A DNA stretch of 64,000 bases, taken from the NCBI GenBank assembly GCA_963813815.1, contig CAWFAD010000009.1, forward strand, positions 1-64,000, written 5' to 3'. Of the stretch, positions 2,611-62,235 are shown piece after piece. The notes below the pieces were generated by a model that was not told where the DNA came from, ran no database searches, and was given only the letters and a program-made list of their open reading frames with translations. This DNA is from an uncultured bacterium. GTDB lineage: Bacteria > Krumholzibacteriota > Krumholzibacteriia > Krumholzibacteriales > Krumholzibacteriaceae. The position numbers and the translations under genes were made by a program. Position 1 is the first letter of the stretch, and each line of letters starts with the position of its first letter.

Positions 2611-3753
2611 ATGCTCATCGAGATAAAAAAGATCGTGCACGGCGGCTACGGACTCGGCTTCTTCGAGGACCGGACCGTCCTCGTCCCGTACGCCGCCCCC
2701 GGCGATACGGTCGAGTGCGTTCCCGTGCGCGAGCGGAAAAAGGTCGTTTTCGCCCGCATCGAGCGGATCGTCTCTCCCGGGCCCTCGCGCCGCGAGAGCG
2801 AATGCCCCGTCTTCGGCGTCTGCGGCGGCTGCCATCTCCAGCATCTCGGCTACGAGGACGAGCTCGCGGCCAAGGGGGGCTCCGTCCTCGAGGATCTTTC
2901 GCGGATCGGGAAAATCGCCGCCGGCTTCGATCGCGTCATCCCGTCGCCGTCGCGATACGGATACCGCAACCACGCCATATTCAAGGTCGACGAGGAGCGC
3001 CGGCCCGGCTTTCTCATGCGCGAGTCGGAATCGCTCGTGCCCTTCCCGCCGGGAGGGTGCCTCCTGCTCCCGGAAGCGATGCGGGAAGCGATCGCGGCCC
3101 TGCCTCCCGGCGCCTTCGAACCGCTCTCGGAGGTCCGCGTCCGCATGGACCGGTTCGGGAACGTCCATTTCTGGGGTCTTCTCGACCGGGTCGGACCGCC
3201 CGAGATCCTCATGGAGGCCGGCTCGCTCCTCTTCCCGGTGAGCCCCGACTCGTTCTTTCAGGTGAATACGCTGCTCGGCCTGGAGCTTCAAGATCTCGTC
3301 CGCTCGCTTCCGCGGACGGTCCGCCGCAAGCTGCTCGACCTCTACTGCGGGGTCGGTTTCTTCACGCTGGCGCTCTCGGGAATGGCCGGCGAGGCCCTCG
3401 GAATCGAGCGCGATCGGGGGGCGGTCCGGAACGCGTCGGCGGCGGCTCGGCTCAACGGCATATCGAACGTGAAATTCCGGCGGGGGAACGCCGCGAGGGA
3501 GATCGCGAGGCTCCGCGATTTCGATCTCGCGCTCATCGATCCGCCGCGCCTCGGCGTGCCGAAGGAGCTCGTCGCGGGGCTCCTGAAGCTGCGCCCCTCG
3601 GAGATCATCTTCGTCTCGTGCGATCCGCCGACCTTCGCGCGCGACGCCGCCGCGCTCGTCGAGGCCGGATACCTTCTCTCGGGACTCAACCTCGTCGATC
3701 TCTTCCCGGCGACCTACCACGCGGAGATCGTTTCGATCTTCCGCCGCGGATAA
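2611..3753 (+). CDS. rlmD: 23S rRNA (uracil-C5)-methyltransferase, RlmD/TrmA family
   Basis: TRAM-like N-terminus, CPVFGVCGGC Fe-S motif, SFFQVN, LDLYCGVG, DPPR, VSCDP. Confidence 0.85.
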   Translation: MLIEIKKIVHGGYGLGFFEDRTVLVPYAAPGDTVECVPVRERKKVVFARIERIVSPGPSRRESECPVFGVCGGCHLQHLGYEDELAAKGGSVLEDLSRIGKIAAGFDRVIPSPSRYGYRNHAIFKVDEERRPGFLMRESESLVPFPPGGCLLLPEAMREAIAALPPGAFEPLSEVRVRMDRFGNVHFWGLLDRVGPPEILMEAGSLLFPVSPDSFFQVNTLLGLELQDLVRSLPRTVRRKLLDLYCGVGFFTLALSGMAGEALGIERDRGAVRNASAAARLNGISNVKFRRGNAAREIARLRDFDLALIDPPRLGVPKELVAGLLKLRPSEIIFVSCDPPTFARDAAALVEAGYLLSGLNLVDLFPATYHAEIVSIFRRG

Positions 3754-3774
3754 TGCTCCCCGCCCCGGCCCGCG

Positions 3775-4857
3775 CTACCCCTCGAGAAGCGGATTCTCGA
3801 TCTTCACGTTGAGCCGCTCCTTGTCGTAGAGCTTGTCGACGTCGACGAGGCGCGGCGATTTCCGCACTTCCTCGAGCGGCACGATCGTGAGCTTCGACCG
3901 CTGCACGCAAACCATGTGCCCGAACTTCCCGTCCTTGATGAGCTCGACGGCGCTGTGGCCGAACCGGCGGCCGATCTGCCGGTCGCGCTGCGTCGGCGGC
4001 GCCCCGCGCTGCAGGTAGGCGAGCGCCGTGTAGCGCGTGTGCTTGAACTCGTGCTCGAGGTATCCCTTGAGGGCGTCCCCGACGCCGCCGAGGCTGTAGT
4101 GCCCGAACTCGTCGAGCTTGCTGTCGCGCCGGATCGCGTCCTTTCCCTCGATGTGGGCCCCCTCCGCGACGACGATGATCTTGTAGCGGTGCTCGAAGCC
4201 GAGATGCTCGTTCTCCTTCTGCCGCTGCTTCAGGACGGAAACGAGCTTTTCGATCGAGAAGGGGTATTCGGGGATCAGGATGACGTCCGCGAACGCCGAC
4301 TCTCCGCCCCGGAGCGCGAGCCATCCGGCGTGCCGCCCCATCACCTCGAGAAAAAAGATCGTCTCGTGCGACTCGGCCGTATGGGCCACCCGCTCCGCGC
4401 TCTCGCAAATCACGTTGAGCGCCGTGTCGTAGCCGAGCGTGTATTCGGTGCCCGCGAGATCGCGGTCGATCGTCTTCGGAATGCCGACGACCGGAATCCC
4501 GCGCGTGTGGAGAACGTCGGCGGCGCCGAGCGTGTCCTCGCCGCCGATCGCGATGATCGCGTCGAGATTCCACTTCTTCATGTTTTCCCTGACGAGCTCG
4601 GTCCGGTCGTTGTCCCCCTTGACGGGGTTCGTCCGGCTGCACTGGAGCTTGCTCCCGCCGAGGCGGCTCCATTCCCGCACGATCTCGGGGCCGAGCTTTA
4701 TGATGTGGCCGTCGTTCTCCCGTATGGAGAGCGCCTGCCAGCCCCGTTTGAGTCCGACGACCTCGATGCCGTCCATGGAGGCCCGCTCCACCACGCCCGC
4801 GATCGCCGGATTGAGTCCCGGCGCGTCGCCTCCGCCCGTCAACACTCCGATTCTCAT
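3775..4857 (-). CDS. pfkA: 6-phosphofructokinase
   Basis: IGVLTGGGDAPGLN, GGEDT, PKTID, EVMGRHAGW, ILIPE motifs. Confidence 0.93.
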   Translation of the reverse strand: MRIGVLTGGGDAPGLNPAIAGVVERASMDGIEVVGLKRGWQALSIRENDGHIIKLGPEIVREWSRLGGSKLQCSRTNPVKGDNDRTELVRENMKKWNLDAIIAIGGEDTLGAADVLHTRGIPVVGIPKTIDRDLAGTEYTLGYDTALNVICESAERVAHTAESHETIFFLEVMGRHAGWLALRGGESAFADVILIPEYPFSIEKLVSVLKQRQKENEHLGFEHRYKIIVVAEGAHIEGKDAIRRDSKLDEFGHYSLGGVGDALKGYLEHEFKHTRYTALAYLQRGAPPTQRDRQIGRRFGHSAVELIKDGKFGHMVCVQRSKLTIVPLEEVRKSPRLVDVDKLYDKERLNVKIENPLLEG

Positions 4858-57939: not shown

Positions 57940-60547
57940 ATGGACTCTCTCGTCGGCAAAATCGTCTCGCACTACAGAATCATCGAGAGAATCGGCGCCG
58001 GCGGCATGGGCGTCGTGTACAAGGCCGAGGACACGAAGCTCGGCCGCACCGTCGCCCTCAAGTTTTTGCCCCCCGAGATGACCCGCGACCGCAAGGCCAA
58101 GGAGCGCTTCGTGGCCGAGGCGCGGGCGGCCTCCGCGATAGAGCATTCCAACATCTGCACGATATTCGAGGTCGACGAGATCGAGGACGACCGGATATTC
58201 ATCTCGATGGCCTATTACCAGGGCAAGACGCTGAGAGAGCGCATCGCCGAGGGGCCGCTCGGGCTCGCGGAAGCGCTCGACGTCGCCTCGCAGACCGCCC
58301 ACGGGCTCGCCAAGGCCCACGCCCACGGGATCGTGCACAGGGACATCAAACCGGGCAACATTTTCCTCACGGATGACGGCGCGGTGAAGATCGTCGACTT
58401 CGGGCTCGCCAAGCTCGCCGGGCAGGCGAGGCTCACGACCTCGGGGAAAACGATGGGCACCGTCTCGTACATGTCCCCCGAGCAGGCGCGGGGCGAGGAG
58501 ACGGGCCCCCGGACGGACGTCTGGGCCTTGGGAGTCGTGCTCTACGAAATGGTGACGGGCGAGCTGCCGTTTCGGGGCGACTACGACGTCGCGGTCATCT
58601 ACTCGATCTTGAACGAGACGCCCCCGGCGATGAGCGCCGTCCGCCCCGGCATACCGGAGGAGCTCGAGAAGATCGTCGAGAAGGCGCTCGCGCGCGACGA
58701 GGCCGGGCGCTACGAGGACGCGGGCGCGCTCCATTCGGATCTCGCCGCGCTCAAACAGCAGCTCGATTTCAGCACGTTCACGGGCGCGCACGAGTGGAAT
58801 TTCAAAGGCGGGAAAAGGAGGCGGATAATGGCTCTCGTGGGCGCGGCGGTCGCCGTCGCGGCCCTCGCCGTCGTCTGGCGGACCGCGGGCGAAAGGCGAG
58901 GCCCCGCGCCCGGGCTGCCCGGTCAGGCCCGCAAGGTCACGAGCGGCGACGCATGGCAGGGCGATCCCGCCCTCTCGCCGGACGGAAGCAGAATCGCGTA
59001 CTCCTCGGACGAATCAGGCAACAAAGACATCTACATCACGAACGCGAGCGGAGAGAGCAACCTGAGGCTCACGAACGACCCCGCTCCCGATTATTACCCG
59101 GCGTGGTTTCCCGACGGAGAGGCGATCGTCTTCGTCTCGGAGCGGAGCGGCATCCCCTCGATCTGGAAAATGAGCTCGCTCGGTGGCGGCGCCACCTTGC
59201 TCGTCGAGAACGCCATCGATCCCGCGATATCGCCCGATGGCGCGCGGATCGCGTTCACGACGCTCTTGCCGGGAGGGGATCAGTTCATCGCCGTCGCTTC
59301 GCTCGCCGATGCCGGAAAGGTGACGCTTCTCACGGGGCCGTCGGACGGGCTGTGGGACCACCGAAAGCCGGCGTGGTCTCCCGACGGAAGAACGATCTGC
59401 TACGCCAGCGCGGCAGGACCTCTGGACCGTATCCGCTTCGGGCGGTCCGGCCATGCGTCTGACGAGAGAGGGGGAGAACGACACGAGCCCCGCGTGGTCG
59501 AGCGACGGCAAGCGCGTGTACTTCTCCTCCGAGCGCGAAGGGACGCTCGCCCTTTGGCGCATCGACGTCAGGGGGGCCGCGCTCACGAGGCTCACGCAGG
59601 GACCGGGGTACGAGTACGACCCGAGCGTCAGCGGGGACGGCTCGCGAATCGCCTACGCGACGCGGAGAGAGCCGGGGGCGCTGTACCTCAGGGATATGAG
59701 GGCGAAGACGGACACGAAGCTCGCCGGGATACGGGGCGACTGTCTCGCCGCCATCGCGCCGGACGGGAGCAAAATCGTGTTCGCGTCGGATCGCGGAGGC
59801 GTGATGTTCGATCTCTGGATGCAGCCGCTCGAAGGCGGACTCCCCTCGGGGCAGCCGCAGCGCCTCACCGAGGACTCGGCGCACGCCTCGTGCCCGATGT
59901 TCTCGCCCGACGGCAAGTGGATCGCGTACTACCGGCTTCTCGGCGAGCAGCGCGACGTCTATACGATTTCGGCCTCGGGCGGCCAGCCGATCAGGTTCAC
60001 CGACGATCCCGCGTCCGACGTCCAGCCGGCGTGGTCTCCGGACGGCTCCAAGATCGCTTTCGCCTCGGAGCGCGGCGGCCGCTTCGACATCTGGATCGCT
60101 CCGGTGGCCGAGGGACGACCCACCGGCCCGCCGCTGCGCCTCACGAGCGCTCCCGCGGACGCCATCGCTCCCGTCTGGTCGCCCGATGGAACGCGCATCG
60201 CGTACGTCGGCGACACCGAGAGCGGCCCCGACGTCTGGATCGTGCCGGCGGACGGCAAGGCGCCGGGGAAAAGAATCACATCGGGGGCGAACGTGGAGAC
60301 GGTTCGGTGGGACCCCCTCGCCGGGGCGCTCCTCGCGAGCGGAAGATGGGGCGAGGACGAGCTGAGCATTCGCCGGGTCTCGCCCGAAGGAGGGGCGGTT
60401 TCGCCGATCGATCCGCCCATCGTTCTCGGCCCCGCGCCGACGACCGCGTTATTCGACGTCACGCTCGACGGAGGTCTCGTGCTCTTTCCTCGCGAGAACA
60501 AGCGGGGAAACATTTGGGCGCACGAGGCGAAGAAGGGAACGTTCTGA
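57940..60547 (+). CDS. Hanks-type Ser/Thr protein kinase with TM helix and TolB/PD40 beta-propeller; frameshift near 59407
   Basis: GAGGMG.VY, VALK, HRDIKPGN, DFG, YMSPEQ; repeated P.WSPDG..IA; frame changes at TICYA/RQDLWTVS. Confidence 0.9.
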
Positions 60548-60570
60548 CTCTGACGAAAAGGAGGGACGAC

Positions 60571-60996
60571 ATGGTAGCGCGAAAACCGGCGCCCCGGGCT
60601 CTGGCCGCGAGGCGCGAGACGCGGAAGGCGCTCTTGGAGGCGCTCGCCTCCATCCGCGCGGCGAAGAGGGCCATCGTCAAGACGGGAGCGATGAGGACGA
60701 CCGTCTACCCCGCGGTATTCCCGCCGCAGACGCCGACGAGCGTTTGCAAGACGATCACCACGGATTCCATCGTCCTGAACCCGCCCTACGTGCCGTTCAC
60801 CAAGTGCAGGGCCTTCTATCCTCCGAGGGTTCCGTTCAAAATATGCGGCATTCCGCCGCGTGGGATCGATGTGACGAGGGAAGATTTCAGGAAGGGGCTC
60901 GAGGCGATCGAGCTGTGGATACGGTACGTGCAGAAGGTCTTCGACACGGCCGCTTCGAAGAGACCGGCGCTGCCCAAACCGAAAGCCCGGCGGTAA
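60571..60996 (+). CDS. 141-aa protein with three PPxxPxxxC repeats; candidate radical SAM substrate
   Basis: AAGGAGG RBS, ATG 60571; lies 23 nt after the kinase and 15 nt before the radical SAM gene. Confidence 0.75.
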   Translation: MVARKPAPRALAARRETRKALLEALASIRAAKRAIVKTGAMRTTVYPAVFPPQTPTSVCKTITTDSIVLNPPYVPFTKCRAFYPPRVPFKICGIPPRGIDVTREDFRKGLEAIELWIRYVQKVFDTAASKRPALPKPKARR

Positions 60997-61011
60997 GGGC
61001 GGCGGAAGAGC

Positions 61012-62235
61012 ATGTCCCCCCTCGAGCGTATCGAGGCGCTCACCCTCATCCTCACGTCGCGCTGCAACATGCGCTGCGCCTACTGCTACCAGAGCGCGAA
61101 ACGGCCGGCGAGCGCGTCGTGGAGGACGATCGGCGCCGCGATCGACCTCGCGATGGACGGCGGGCGCGGGGAGATCGACATCGGGTTCTGCGGGGGCGAG
61201 CCGCTTCTCGAGTTTCCCCTCATGCGACGCGCGGTCGCGCGCGCCGAGGGGAAGCGGCCGGGCGGACGGGGCGCGACGTACTACATCAGCACGAACGGCA
61301 CGCTCCTCACTGAGGAGATCGCCGCCTTTCTCGAAGAGCATCGCTTCGAGACGCAGATCAGCTTCGACGGCGTCGCGGCCGCTCAGGACCTTCGAGGACG
61401 CGGCACCTTCCGGACTCTCGACCGGCTGCTCGCGCGGTTGCGAATAAGGCACGCCGGGTTCTACGAGAGCAACGTCTCGATCGCCCTCACCGTGACCCCG
61501 CGCAACCTCGCGCAGCTCGCCGAGTCGGTCTCCTACTTTCTCGACATGGGCGCGTCGAGAATCGTGATCGCGCCGGCCATCGCCTCGGACGCCGAGTGGA
61601 GCGACGATCTCATGGGCGGGCTCGACGCGCAGCTCGCCTCGGCGTTCGAGAGAAGCCTCGCGTACTACGAGGAAACGGGAGAGATACCGGTTCAAATGTT
61701 TCGCGGCGGGGACGCGCCCTCGAGCGCGCCGAGAGGGCGGCCACTCTGCGGCGCCGCTCGCGCGGCGGGCATCACGGTCGACGTCGACGGCGAGGTCTAC
61801 GGATGCTCCATGTTCGCTCGCTCCTACCTCGACGTCGAATCGCCGCTCCTTCGCGCGTGCGTGGAGGCGATGCGCCTCGGGAGGATCGACGATCCCGGTC
61901 TCTCCCGCCGCCTCGCCTCCCACCCCGCGGCGGTGCGGCGGGCGGGGATATTCCACCGCAAGGACCGAAAGCGCTCGGCGCACGCGAGGTGCGCCGAGTG
62001 CCGCTATCTCGATCGCTGCTTCGTCTGCCCCGCGTGCATCGCCTTCGCGCCCGGGAACGGCGACCCCGACAGGATCTCGGACTTCTGCTGCGCCTTTAAT
62101 CAAGCGGCGCTGAAATATCAGGACCGCTTCCCGCGCGAGGCGGCGGCCGGCGACGCGCTCCTCGCGCCCCCCGGCGCCGCGGCCGAGATGGAGCGCTGGA
62201 GGATTCTCGCCGGCGGAGCGCCGCGCCCCGCATAG
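61012..62235 (+). CDS. Radical SAM/SPASM domain protein
   Basis: CNMRCAYC, GGEPLL, STNG, ISFDG; SPASM LC...DGEVYGC and CAEC.....C..C..C...CC. Confidence 0.92.
   Translation: MSPLERIEALTLILTSRCNMRCAYCYQSAKRPASASWRTIGAAIDLAMDGGRGEIDIGFCGGEPLLEFPLMRRAVARAEGKRPGGRGATYYISTNGTLLTEEIAAFLEEHRFETQISFDGVAAAQDLRGRGTFRTLDRLLARLRIRHAGFYESNVSIALTVTPRNLAQLAESVSYFLDMGASRIVIAPAIASDAEWSDDLMGGLDAQLASAFERSLAYYEETGEIPVQMFRGGDAPSSAPRGRPLCGAARAAGITVDVDGEVYGCSMFARSYLDVESPLLRACVEAMRLGRIDDPGLSRRLASHPAAVRRAGIFHRKDRKRSAHARCAECRYLDRCFVCPACIAFAPGNGDPDRISDFCCAFNQAALKYQDRFPREAAAGDALLAPPGAAAEMERWRILAGGAPRPA

Follow-up and report, generated by a model that had tools for sequence, protein, structure and literature searches.

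The Locus

The stretch of DNA analysed here, referred to as the window, comprises 64,000 nucleotides (nt), positions 1 to 64,000 of the forward strand of contig CAWFAD010000009.1 (assembly GCA_963813815.1), from an uncultured bacterium of the family Krumholzibacteriaceae in the phylum Krumholzibacteriota. Near its end lie three consecutive genes, which encode a Ser/Thr kinase joined to a PD40 beta-propeller, a small Cys/Pro-rich protein of 141 amino acids (aa) and a radical S-adenosylmethionine (rSAM) enzyme with a SPASM region (Table 1). Together they form a conserved three-gene operon that recurs in many uncultured bacteria, and it is this cassette, with the presumed modification of the small protein by the rSAM enzyme, that we report here. 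The genes are closely packed, with 23 nt between the kinase gene and the small open reading frame (ORF) and 15 nt between the stop of the latter and the rSAM ATG at 61012; in one related locus (related loci are numbered with the prefix L), L002, the small-ORF stop and the rSAM start overlap.

Table 1. Features of the three-gene cassette, in coordinates of the window. A3, alignment and profile of seven syntenic homologues of the 141-aa protein; dN/dS, ratio of non-synonymous to synonymous substitution rates; pLDDT, predicted local distance difference test; RRE, recognition element of RiPPs (peptides ribosomally synthesized, then post-translationally modified).
Feature	Position	Strand	Basis
Ser/Thr kinase, one hydrophobic segment and PD40 (TolB-like) beta-propeller	57940..60547	+	Pfam; read in two frames, break near 59408-59411
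Shine-Dalgarno-like GGAGGG	60560..60565	+	Sequence reading; 5 nt 5' of the small-ORF ATG
Small protein, 141 aa, candidate precursor or substrate	60571..60996	+	Translation, profile search, synteny, dN/dS
N-terminal basic amphipathic helix, residues 8-37	60592..60681	+	AlphaFold2 block pLDDT 80-90; conserved in A3
Repeat 1, PPQTPTSVC	60721..60747	+	Translation and A3 alignment
Repeat 2, PPYVPFTKC	60781..60807	+	Translation and A3 alignment
Repeat 3, PPRVPFKIC	60820..60846	+	Kept in all seven A3 members, including single-repeat forms; conserved G-I-P-P follows
Conserved recognition-like helix module, about residues 98-135 (model helix 103-128)	60862..60975	+	hhalign; C-terminal to the core
rSAM/SPASM enzyme, 407 aa, no RRE	61012..62235	+	Pfam, NCBIfam, PDB profile search, AlphaFold2, Foldseek
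CX3CX2C rSAM motif, C18/C22/C25	61063..61086	+	Invariant in 22/22 homologues
SPASM region, seven invariant Cys (246, 265, 327, 330, 336, 339, 360)	61747..62091	+	22 aligned homologues

The Small Cys/Pro-Rich Protein Is Encoded by a Real Gene

Translation of positions 60571-60996 gives 141 residues and a stop, and reproduces exactly what an initial annotation, made by a model from the letters of the sequence, had described: three PPxxPxxxC repeats (residues 51-59, 71-79 and 84-92), each closed by one of the only three Cys of the protein, and a partial fourth repeat, PPRG, within the IPPRG that directly follows the third Cys. The ORF is hidden, as had also been noticed, in the tail of a frameshifted kinase gene, because a frame switch near 59409-59411 in this upstream gene lets the wrong frame read through, yielding an open frame of 1018 aa at 57940-60996. 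A further long frame, of 714 aa and rich in Arg, Ala and Gly, lies antisense at 59959-62103 on the minus strand, covering the propeller end, the small ORF and the greater part of the rSAM gene; it looks like an artefact of GC content.

Several observations indicate that the 141-aa ORF is a real protein-coding gene. Among 200,000 shuffles of its sequence, none contained the pattern PP..P...C three times, and 894 had at least one match. The A3 profile, searched against 1.84 billion cluster representatives, retrieved 17 proteins at E ≤ 1e-3, namely the window's own and 16 others; in these, [FYH]PPxxPxx(x)C occurs once, twice or three times between two helices as in the window. A word-index search with the 141-aa protein returned only the query, a limit of the index given the relatives found by profile. 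Residues P84, P85, P88 and C92 of the third repeat are invariant across A3, and the relatives keep the frame, their insertions and deletions being whole codons. The dN/dS ratio is below 0.55 in seven of ten pairs, with 0.22-0.35 for close pairs and 0.45-0.53 for the window protein compared with the others. The gene is single-copy in its own genome, and a metagenome contig about 96% identical covers the ORF without any insertion or deletion. Among the sequencing runs listed as holding the locus there was no RNA run, the shares of the DNA runs being at most 0.35. No Pfam family matched the small protein below E = 0.1, and a resemblance to the anti-sigma factor CnrY (E 0.1-0.22, below cut-off) was dismissed as due to chance.

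Within the window's genus, L082 (at about 930-1000) and L083 possess a second, single-repeat paralogue between the propeller gene and the three-repeat gene. It reads FPPQMPxAPC and has the same C-terminal helix as the three-repeat gene; P0130, a protein from the profile search, is of this type.

Conservation of the Cassette

Related loci were gathered from species genomes related to the window and from a scan of metagenome contigs with an alignment of the C-terminal part of the rSAM enzyme (A2). A generic rSAM scan of genome contigs added one locus from an Acidobacteriota genome and one other; it gave at least 79 loci, with two family members among the matches listed, and the other 77 served as a control set. 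The family is large and well conserved: a word-index search with the rSAM enzyme found 749 proteins at E ≤ 0.001, the best 120 of which have E ≤ 1e-104 and 42-68% identity, and the source names include Vicinamibacteria, Desulfobacterales and Candidatus Eiseniibacteriota.

A Cys-containing ORF ends at most 230 nt upstream of the rSAM gene in 56 of the 57 loci (window included) that hold the rSAM 5' end. Without the window, 55 of 56 loci have such an ORF, amounting to 47 distinct small proteins, all chosen for containing Cys. In L114, the upstream DNA ends after only 123 nt, and in L127 the automatic choice of ORF was wrong, a Cys ORF being visible 12 nt upstream. The initial annotation had proposed to look upstream of rSAM homologues for PPxxPxxxC repeats of varying number. 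This expectation held for the small Cys ORF itself and, among close homologues, for the motif and its number, which ranges from one to three in the window's subfamily. PPxxPxxxC is a feature of this subfamily, with the 17 proteins retrieved by the profile.

The kinase gene had been regarded as a mere frameshifted neighbour, a view that has to be abandoned. All 41 loci with at least 1000 nt of upstream sequence have a kinase-propeller gene there on the same strand, as do 45 of the 46 with 700 nt or more, compared with none of the 77 control rSAM/SPASM loci. Similarly, a separate sample of the window's phylum has the rSAM gene in 27 of 208 genomes, and among its 19 new loci the propeller gene is found upstream in 18 (in the remaining one, the upstream DNA amounts to 274 nt) and the small ORF in 17. 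The kinase-propeller gene belongs to the cassette as its third, invariant member.

No peptidase or exporter is conserved downstream of the rSAM gene, the largest shared gene cluster occurring in 4 of 50 loci, all close relatives, and here the initial annotation, which had seen none adjacent in the window, is borne out. Compared with a canonical RiPP cluster, the unit thus holds a precursor-like ORF, and neither an RRE nor a conserved downstream peptidase or exporter was found. In the window, the flanking genes encode a DUF5916 protein and a melibiase-like protein. L002, whose record is titled Fibrobacteraceae, and L179, from the sample of the window's phylum, share an identical small ORF and probably represent the same or nearly the same genome.

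A Helix Module Shared by Different Precursor Layouts

The AlphaFold2 model of the 141-aa protein outlines two helices, at residues 8-37 and 103-128 (block pLDDT about 76-90), and leaves the core, residues 50-95, unstructured (pLDDT <50), which is consistent with the helical flanks and hairpin scaffold suggested by the initial annotation. The second helix links the window to the rest of the family. Indeed, in hhalign comparisons residues 98-135 matched both the leader helix at the N terminus of single-Cys relatives (E 2.3e-5, probability 76%) and the helix at the C terminus of other relatives of hairpin type (E 1.3e-5, 80%), and these two also aligned with each other (E 2.4e-9, 96%). The shared module spans about 35 residues and reads roughly VT-x-x-DL-x-x-AL-x-x-IE-x-W-x-x-x-VR-x-x-L. 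As judged from these alignments, the family-wide conserved element of the small protein is this helix plus Cys, not the PPxxPxxxC core.

Three layouts are encountered. In the first, a leader helix precedes a short C-terminal core, often with one Cys (terminal residues ...WDDGCPPPE, ...SGGNCPPPE or ...SAGNC); in the second, the core lies between two helices, as in the window; in the third, a Cys-rich core forms the N terminus and the helix comes after. Given the homology of the helix across layouts, the module could therefore act as a leader or as a follower. The follower-only layout is seen at L113 2213-2449, L121 3213-3428 and L149 1642-1905, where a core with 5-6 Cys, e.g., ...WPNFCCGC..., is followed by the helix. 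Many of the relatives have polybasic ends.

A distant member, L168, encodes upstream of its rSAM gene (at 1184) a hairpin-type small protein with three FFPGxC repeats in place of PPxxPxxxC. These repeats look like an independent origin, in which case multi-site cores arose more than once.

Residue Context of the Core Cysteines

Eighteen of the 47 distinct small proteins have exactly one Cys. Asp or Asn stands at positions -1 to -3 of this Cys in 12 of the 18 (shuffle mean 3.4; 12 reached in none of 5000 shuffles) and Pro at +1 to +3 likewise in 12 (shuffle mean 4.7), counts whose independence is overstated, the sequences being related. Considering all Cys, Asp or Asn occurs at -1 to -3 for 51 of 111. 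Pro, with a background of 9.7%, is over-represented at -4 and from +2 to +4 and is the commonest residue at +2 (25/111). As for the window, repeat 1 has Thr at -3 and repeat 2 has it at -2; the acceptors of ranthipeptides are Asp, Asn, Glu and Thr at a fixed short spacing.

The Radical SAM/SPASM Enzyme

The rSAM motif, CNMRCAYC, occupies residues 18-25 of the enzyme and therefore leaves no room for an N-terminal RRE. The C-terminal Cys are spaced C246-x13-G-x4-C265 ... C327-x2-C330-x5-C336-x2-C339 ... C360, and both sets are present in 22 of 22 aligned homologues; with a full-length fold match to CteB and to the anaerobic sulfatase-maturating enzyme (anSME), the enzyme shows the general characters of rSAM/SPASM proteins. 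Pfam recognized Radical_SAM (50 bits) and, weakly, SPASM (16.9 bits, below the gathering score of 21.5). When a profile of the rSAM enzyme (A1) was compared with PDB sequences, CteB ranked first (E 4.7e-27), followed by ChlB, TigE and anSME, the last at E 7e-17. Its first position aligned to residue 90 of CteB, past the RRE of that enzyme, so that the initial description of an rSAM/SPASM gene without RRE just downstream of the small ORF stands.

Among the models of NCBIfam release 20, PapB (NF047865) scored best, with 135.6 bits against a cut-off of 340 (E 2.2e-39), and all 22 aligned homologues matched it (best E 9.7e-46). The SCIFF maturase model of ScfB/CteB (TIGR03974) reached 54.4 bits of 425, and the RRE of that group is lacking. 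Grouping with sulfatase or cofactor maturases, named in the initial annotation as a result that would speak against its proposal, was not seen at NCBIfam cut-offs: the anSME model (TIGR03942) gave 56.4 bits against 349.45, with no sulfatase among the conserved neighbours, and the scores for QhpD (TIGR03906, 86.5/453) and MftC (TIGR03962, 55.3/265) were similarly far below. The label "sulfatase maturation enzyme AslB", attached by JGI to rSAM homologues, was rejected as generic on the failure of the anSME model. The AlphaFold2 model of the enzyme (mean pLDDT 81.9) retrieved CteB, anSME, ChlB and TigE with Foldseek; CteB matched at E 7.6e-16 (TMq 0.63-0.66) and anSME structures 4k36-4k39 at E of about 5e-15 (TM 0.72-0.74 by target length), PqqE being a weak match (TMq 0.49). 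By sequence comparison, the enzyme is nearest to thioether maturases, shares its domain plan with the sulfatase maturase and falls in no curated family.

A complex prediction with the rSAM enzyme (A1, three 4Fe-4S clusters and SAM) and the small protein (A3) scored 0.02 relative to a mark of 0.32, was run without controls and is no evidence either way. Two variants of the rSAM gene deserve mention. In contigs of two runs, one base is inserted and one deleted, 7 nt from each other, at window positions 61636-61643; this pair changes two or three residues and leaves the frame intact. In L173 (G105:C19), whose genome holds a second family member, L182, the rSAM match lies inside a longer frame, of 1132 aa from stop to stop and 786 aa from the chosen start, and the enzyme may be fused to a downstream domain.

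The Kinase-Propeller Gene

Pfam assigned residues 12-259 of the first gene product to Pkinase (171 bits) and found PD40 repeats with 104 and 192 bits; the HRD and DFG motifs of the kinase read as intact. Between the kinase and propeller domains lies a hydrophobic stretch, IMALVGAAVAVAALAVVW. The protein, a kinase of the Hanks type, would have one membrane-spanning segment, which probably places the propeller outside the cytoplasm. A tblastn search with the intact 897-aa homologue of L089 followed the gene at 73-75% identity through a frame switch at window positions 59409/59411. Compared with L089, the window gene has one extra base near 59408, and contigs of two runs from two studies lack it. 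The frame break (window 59400-59415) probably stems from faulty assembly or from a lesion confined to the strain and is no family trait.

The kinase domain also matched the PD-T4-6 kinase models of PADLOC (up to 311 bits, at 57940-58800), a match that concerns the kinase domain only and says nothing specific on defence. With PADLOC 2.0, neither the small protein nor the propeller had a match, and the rSAM enzyme gave weak matches to viperin models (50 bits). L116 encodes a second Ser/Thr kinase domain downstream of the rSAM gene (3458-4285), in addition to the propeller gene upstream.

Proposed Mechanism

We favour, and consider reasonably probable, a reading in which the rSAM enzyme of the three-gene operon docks on the conserved helix of the small protein and acts on the Cys of its core, likely by forming short-range thioether crosslinks. 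That the small protein is the substrate, that Cys is the target, that the product is a thioether and that the kinase takes part is what we infer from the data above. In the window protein, the C-terminal helix would pack on the N-terminal helix and display the core of about 45 residues as a loop; the enzyme, lacking an RRE, would bind the helix and act at each core Cys, hence three times. The most likely reaction would be ranthipeptide-like, the Cys thiolate, held on an auxiliary cluster, joining a carbon radical a few positions upstream. The count of only seven invariant Cys in the SPASM region suits an auxiliary cluster that, like that of CteB, has an open iron site, and the Asp or Asn before Cys in distant relatives recalls NxxcA, which leads us to favour short thioether rings. 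Because the unit holds no peptidase or exporter, the product in the window's subfamily would probably stay a modified protein of 141 aa. Given its invariable pairing with the kinase, the small protein is presumed to work with that kinase, as a ligand, regulator or substrate.

Several points weigh against this reading. Its chemistry is presumed from sequence and models, and the hairpin model, built on a shallow alignment of seven rows, has a mean pLDDT of 63 and is valid in outline only. The rSAM enzyme reaches no curated NCBIfam cut-off, those of PapB and SCIFF included, and its fold is about as close to anSME, which likewise has no RRE, as to CteB. No Asp or Asn is found near Cys in the window repeats, where residues -3/-2 are T/S, F/T and F/K, and the acceptor suggested by the distant relatives is therefore absent in the window. 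The small protein has a dN/dS of about 1 for L089 compared with L082-84 and therefore evolves fast. The window's own kinase gene is broken in frame. Finally, the propeller probably lies outside the cell, yet a signal peptide is missing from the small protein, and a role as ligand therefore needs some export route that is not among the cassette genes. Overall, the observation made in the initial annotation is confirmed, and its interpretation is partly supported.

A more specific idea, which we regard as unlikely, is that the rSAM enzyme produces from the Cys/Pro core a constrained epitope, which the PD40 propeller of the neighbouring kinase binds as its cognate ligand; this would make the cassette a self-contained peptide-signalling circuit. 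The missing signal peptide argues against simple secretion of the small protein, and the epitope would have to reach the propeller via an unlinked export route or upon cell lysis. If this idea were true, the fast-evolving cores and the variable number of repeats might set a lineage-specific signal identity, like pherotypes, and the cassette would represent a bacterial pair of peptide and receptor kinase of a new class, with a wide distribution among uncultured phyla.

Alternative Explanations

Short-range thioether formation by the rSAM enzyme has to be weighed against another reaction at the same residues. anSME oxidation of Cys offers the model: the enzyme could abstract a hydrogen from C-beta and convert each core Cys to C-alpha-formylglycine, or make another single-residue change, leaving a reactive aldehyde in a Pro-rich context. 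The architecture (no RRE, about 400 aa, full SPASM) is that of anSME, to which the Foldseek and A1 profile matches given above also point. The prevalence of Pro at Cys +2 recalls C-x-P-x-R, the sulfatase motif, yet Arg is not one of the six commonest residues at Cys +4. Moreover, a change of one residue needs no partner, which would suit the many single-Cys relatives, in L115 and L124 of which Cys is the last residue. Conversely, the anSME model stays far below its cut-off, the conserved unit has no sulfatase gene and the sequence affinity is higher to thioether maturases. The SPASM region of anSME has eight Cys, whereas seven are invariant here. All in all, we think this chemistry improbable.

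Distinctly less credible is a scheme in which the small protein is an adaptor or regulator of the kinase, such as a helical hairpin bound or phosphorylated by it, and the rSAM enzyme acts on the kinase, on the propeller or on a small molecule. It would account for a kinase that is as invariant a neighbour as the rSAM enzyme, for the lack of RRE, peptidase and exporter, for the Thr/Ser-rich core of the window protein (TPTSVCKTITTDS) and for the polybasic ends of many relatives, which suit docking to membranes or proteins. However, Cys is the sole constant of hypervariable cores and, in the 18 single-Cys proteins out of 47, stands in a non-random context; the rSAM/SPASM enzymes of this clade, as judged from the NCBIfam hit list, act on adjacent small gene products; and the small ORF and the rSAM gene are separated by 15 nt in the window and overlap in L002.

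That the 141-aa ORF is a chance open frame, as might be supposed in a GC-rich region with long spurious frames such as the antisense one and from the word-index search that found no homologue, is hardly conceivable and largely refuted by the 16 further relatives, by the conservation of frame, helices and Cys repeats with whole-codon indels, by the dN/dS values, by the GGAGGG ribosome-binding site and by an ORF at the same position in loci of other phyla.

Significance

Much new peptide chemistry has its source in rSAM/SPASM enzymes acting on small gene products. To our knowledge, nearly all of those studied are from cultured Firmicutes, Actinobacteria or Proteobacteria and involve an RRE-bound leader. 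The family reported here stands out as large, RRE-less and found in uncultured bacteria of soil, sediment and freshwater, and its rSAM enzyme appears, from the alignments of the small proteins, to recognize a helix on either side of the core. The window offers a compact pair, a 141-aa protein with three sites of identical logic and one enzyme, and a candidate partner for a PD40-propeller kinase.

A full-text literature search found neither a description of the kinase-small protein-rSAM cassette nor a link in print between peptide modification and Hanks-kinase signalling. Similarly, Pfam, NCBIfam and PADLOC have no specific model for the cassette. The text of one paper, as available and supplements aside, mentions neither kinase, propeller, TolB and Acidobacteria nor proline (PMC10288494). 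Another, in its available part, deals with a different system, in which an rSAM-SPASM enzyme and FxSxx peptides belong to vWA-MoxR systems (Kaur et al., 2020; PMC7159879). The cassette matches no described family and looks like a new kind of modified-peptide system.

Comparison with Known Systems

The systems below are described as in the available parts of the papers cited. The closest by sequence are ranthipeptide systems, PapB/freyrasin and the SCIFF maturases CteB and Tte1186, which likewise pair a CX3CX2C rSAM enzyme having a two-cluster SPASM domain with an adjacent Cys-bearing gene product. Freyrasin has six Cys-Asp bridges, made at repeated Cys motifs of one precursor, and in the auxiliary cluster of CteB the substrate thiolate binds at an open iron site (PMC8326336). 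Compared with the PapB and SCIFF maturases, the window enzyme scores far below the cut-offs and lacks the N-terminal RRE that CteB has. Their precursors also differ from the small proteins described here, in which a helical module can lie on either side of the core and the window motif has no fixed acidic acceptor. Furthermore, the present cassettes are always paired with a receptor kinase and occur in uncultured phyla of Gram-negative type rather than in Firmicutes. In Streptococcus, NxxcA carries a single short thioether, from Cys23 to Asn20 three residues upstream (PMC8326336), reminiscent of the pattern [D/N]-x(0-2)-C seen in the single-Cys relatives. In contrast to NxxcB/NxxcA, the window repeats contain no NxxC, no quorum-sensing regulator of the streptococcal type is present, and no NxxcB model appeared among the NCBIfam matches shown.

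anSME/AtsB has the same domain plan, no RRE and a similar length, and is one of the two closest folds; its target is a Cys or Ser of a protein, not a leader-bearing peptide (PMC10114670). Here, there is no sulfatase partner, and the candidate substrate is a dedicated small protein. Precedents for thioethers on proteins are provided by QhpD, an rSAM/SPASM enzyme whose product stays a protein (PMC10114670, PMC8326336), and by CrpC/CrpA, in which CrpC has a predicted RRE and the substrate is a Cys-rich archaeal protein (PMC13692751). Unlike QhpD, the window has no qhp genes, and its enzyme is far from the QhpD cut-off. Finally, helix-based recognition has a precedent in SuiB, as the alpha-helical leader of streptide binds the enzyme outside the RRE (PMC8326336); SuiB differs from the present enzyme in forming a Lys-Trp C-C link, in having an RRE and in being a weaker fold match (TMq about 0.50).

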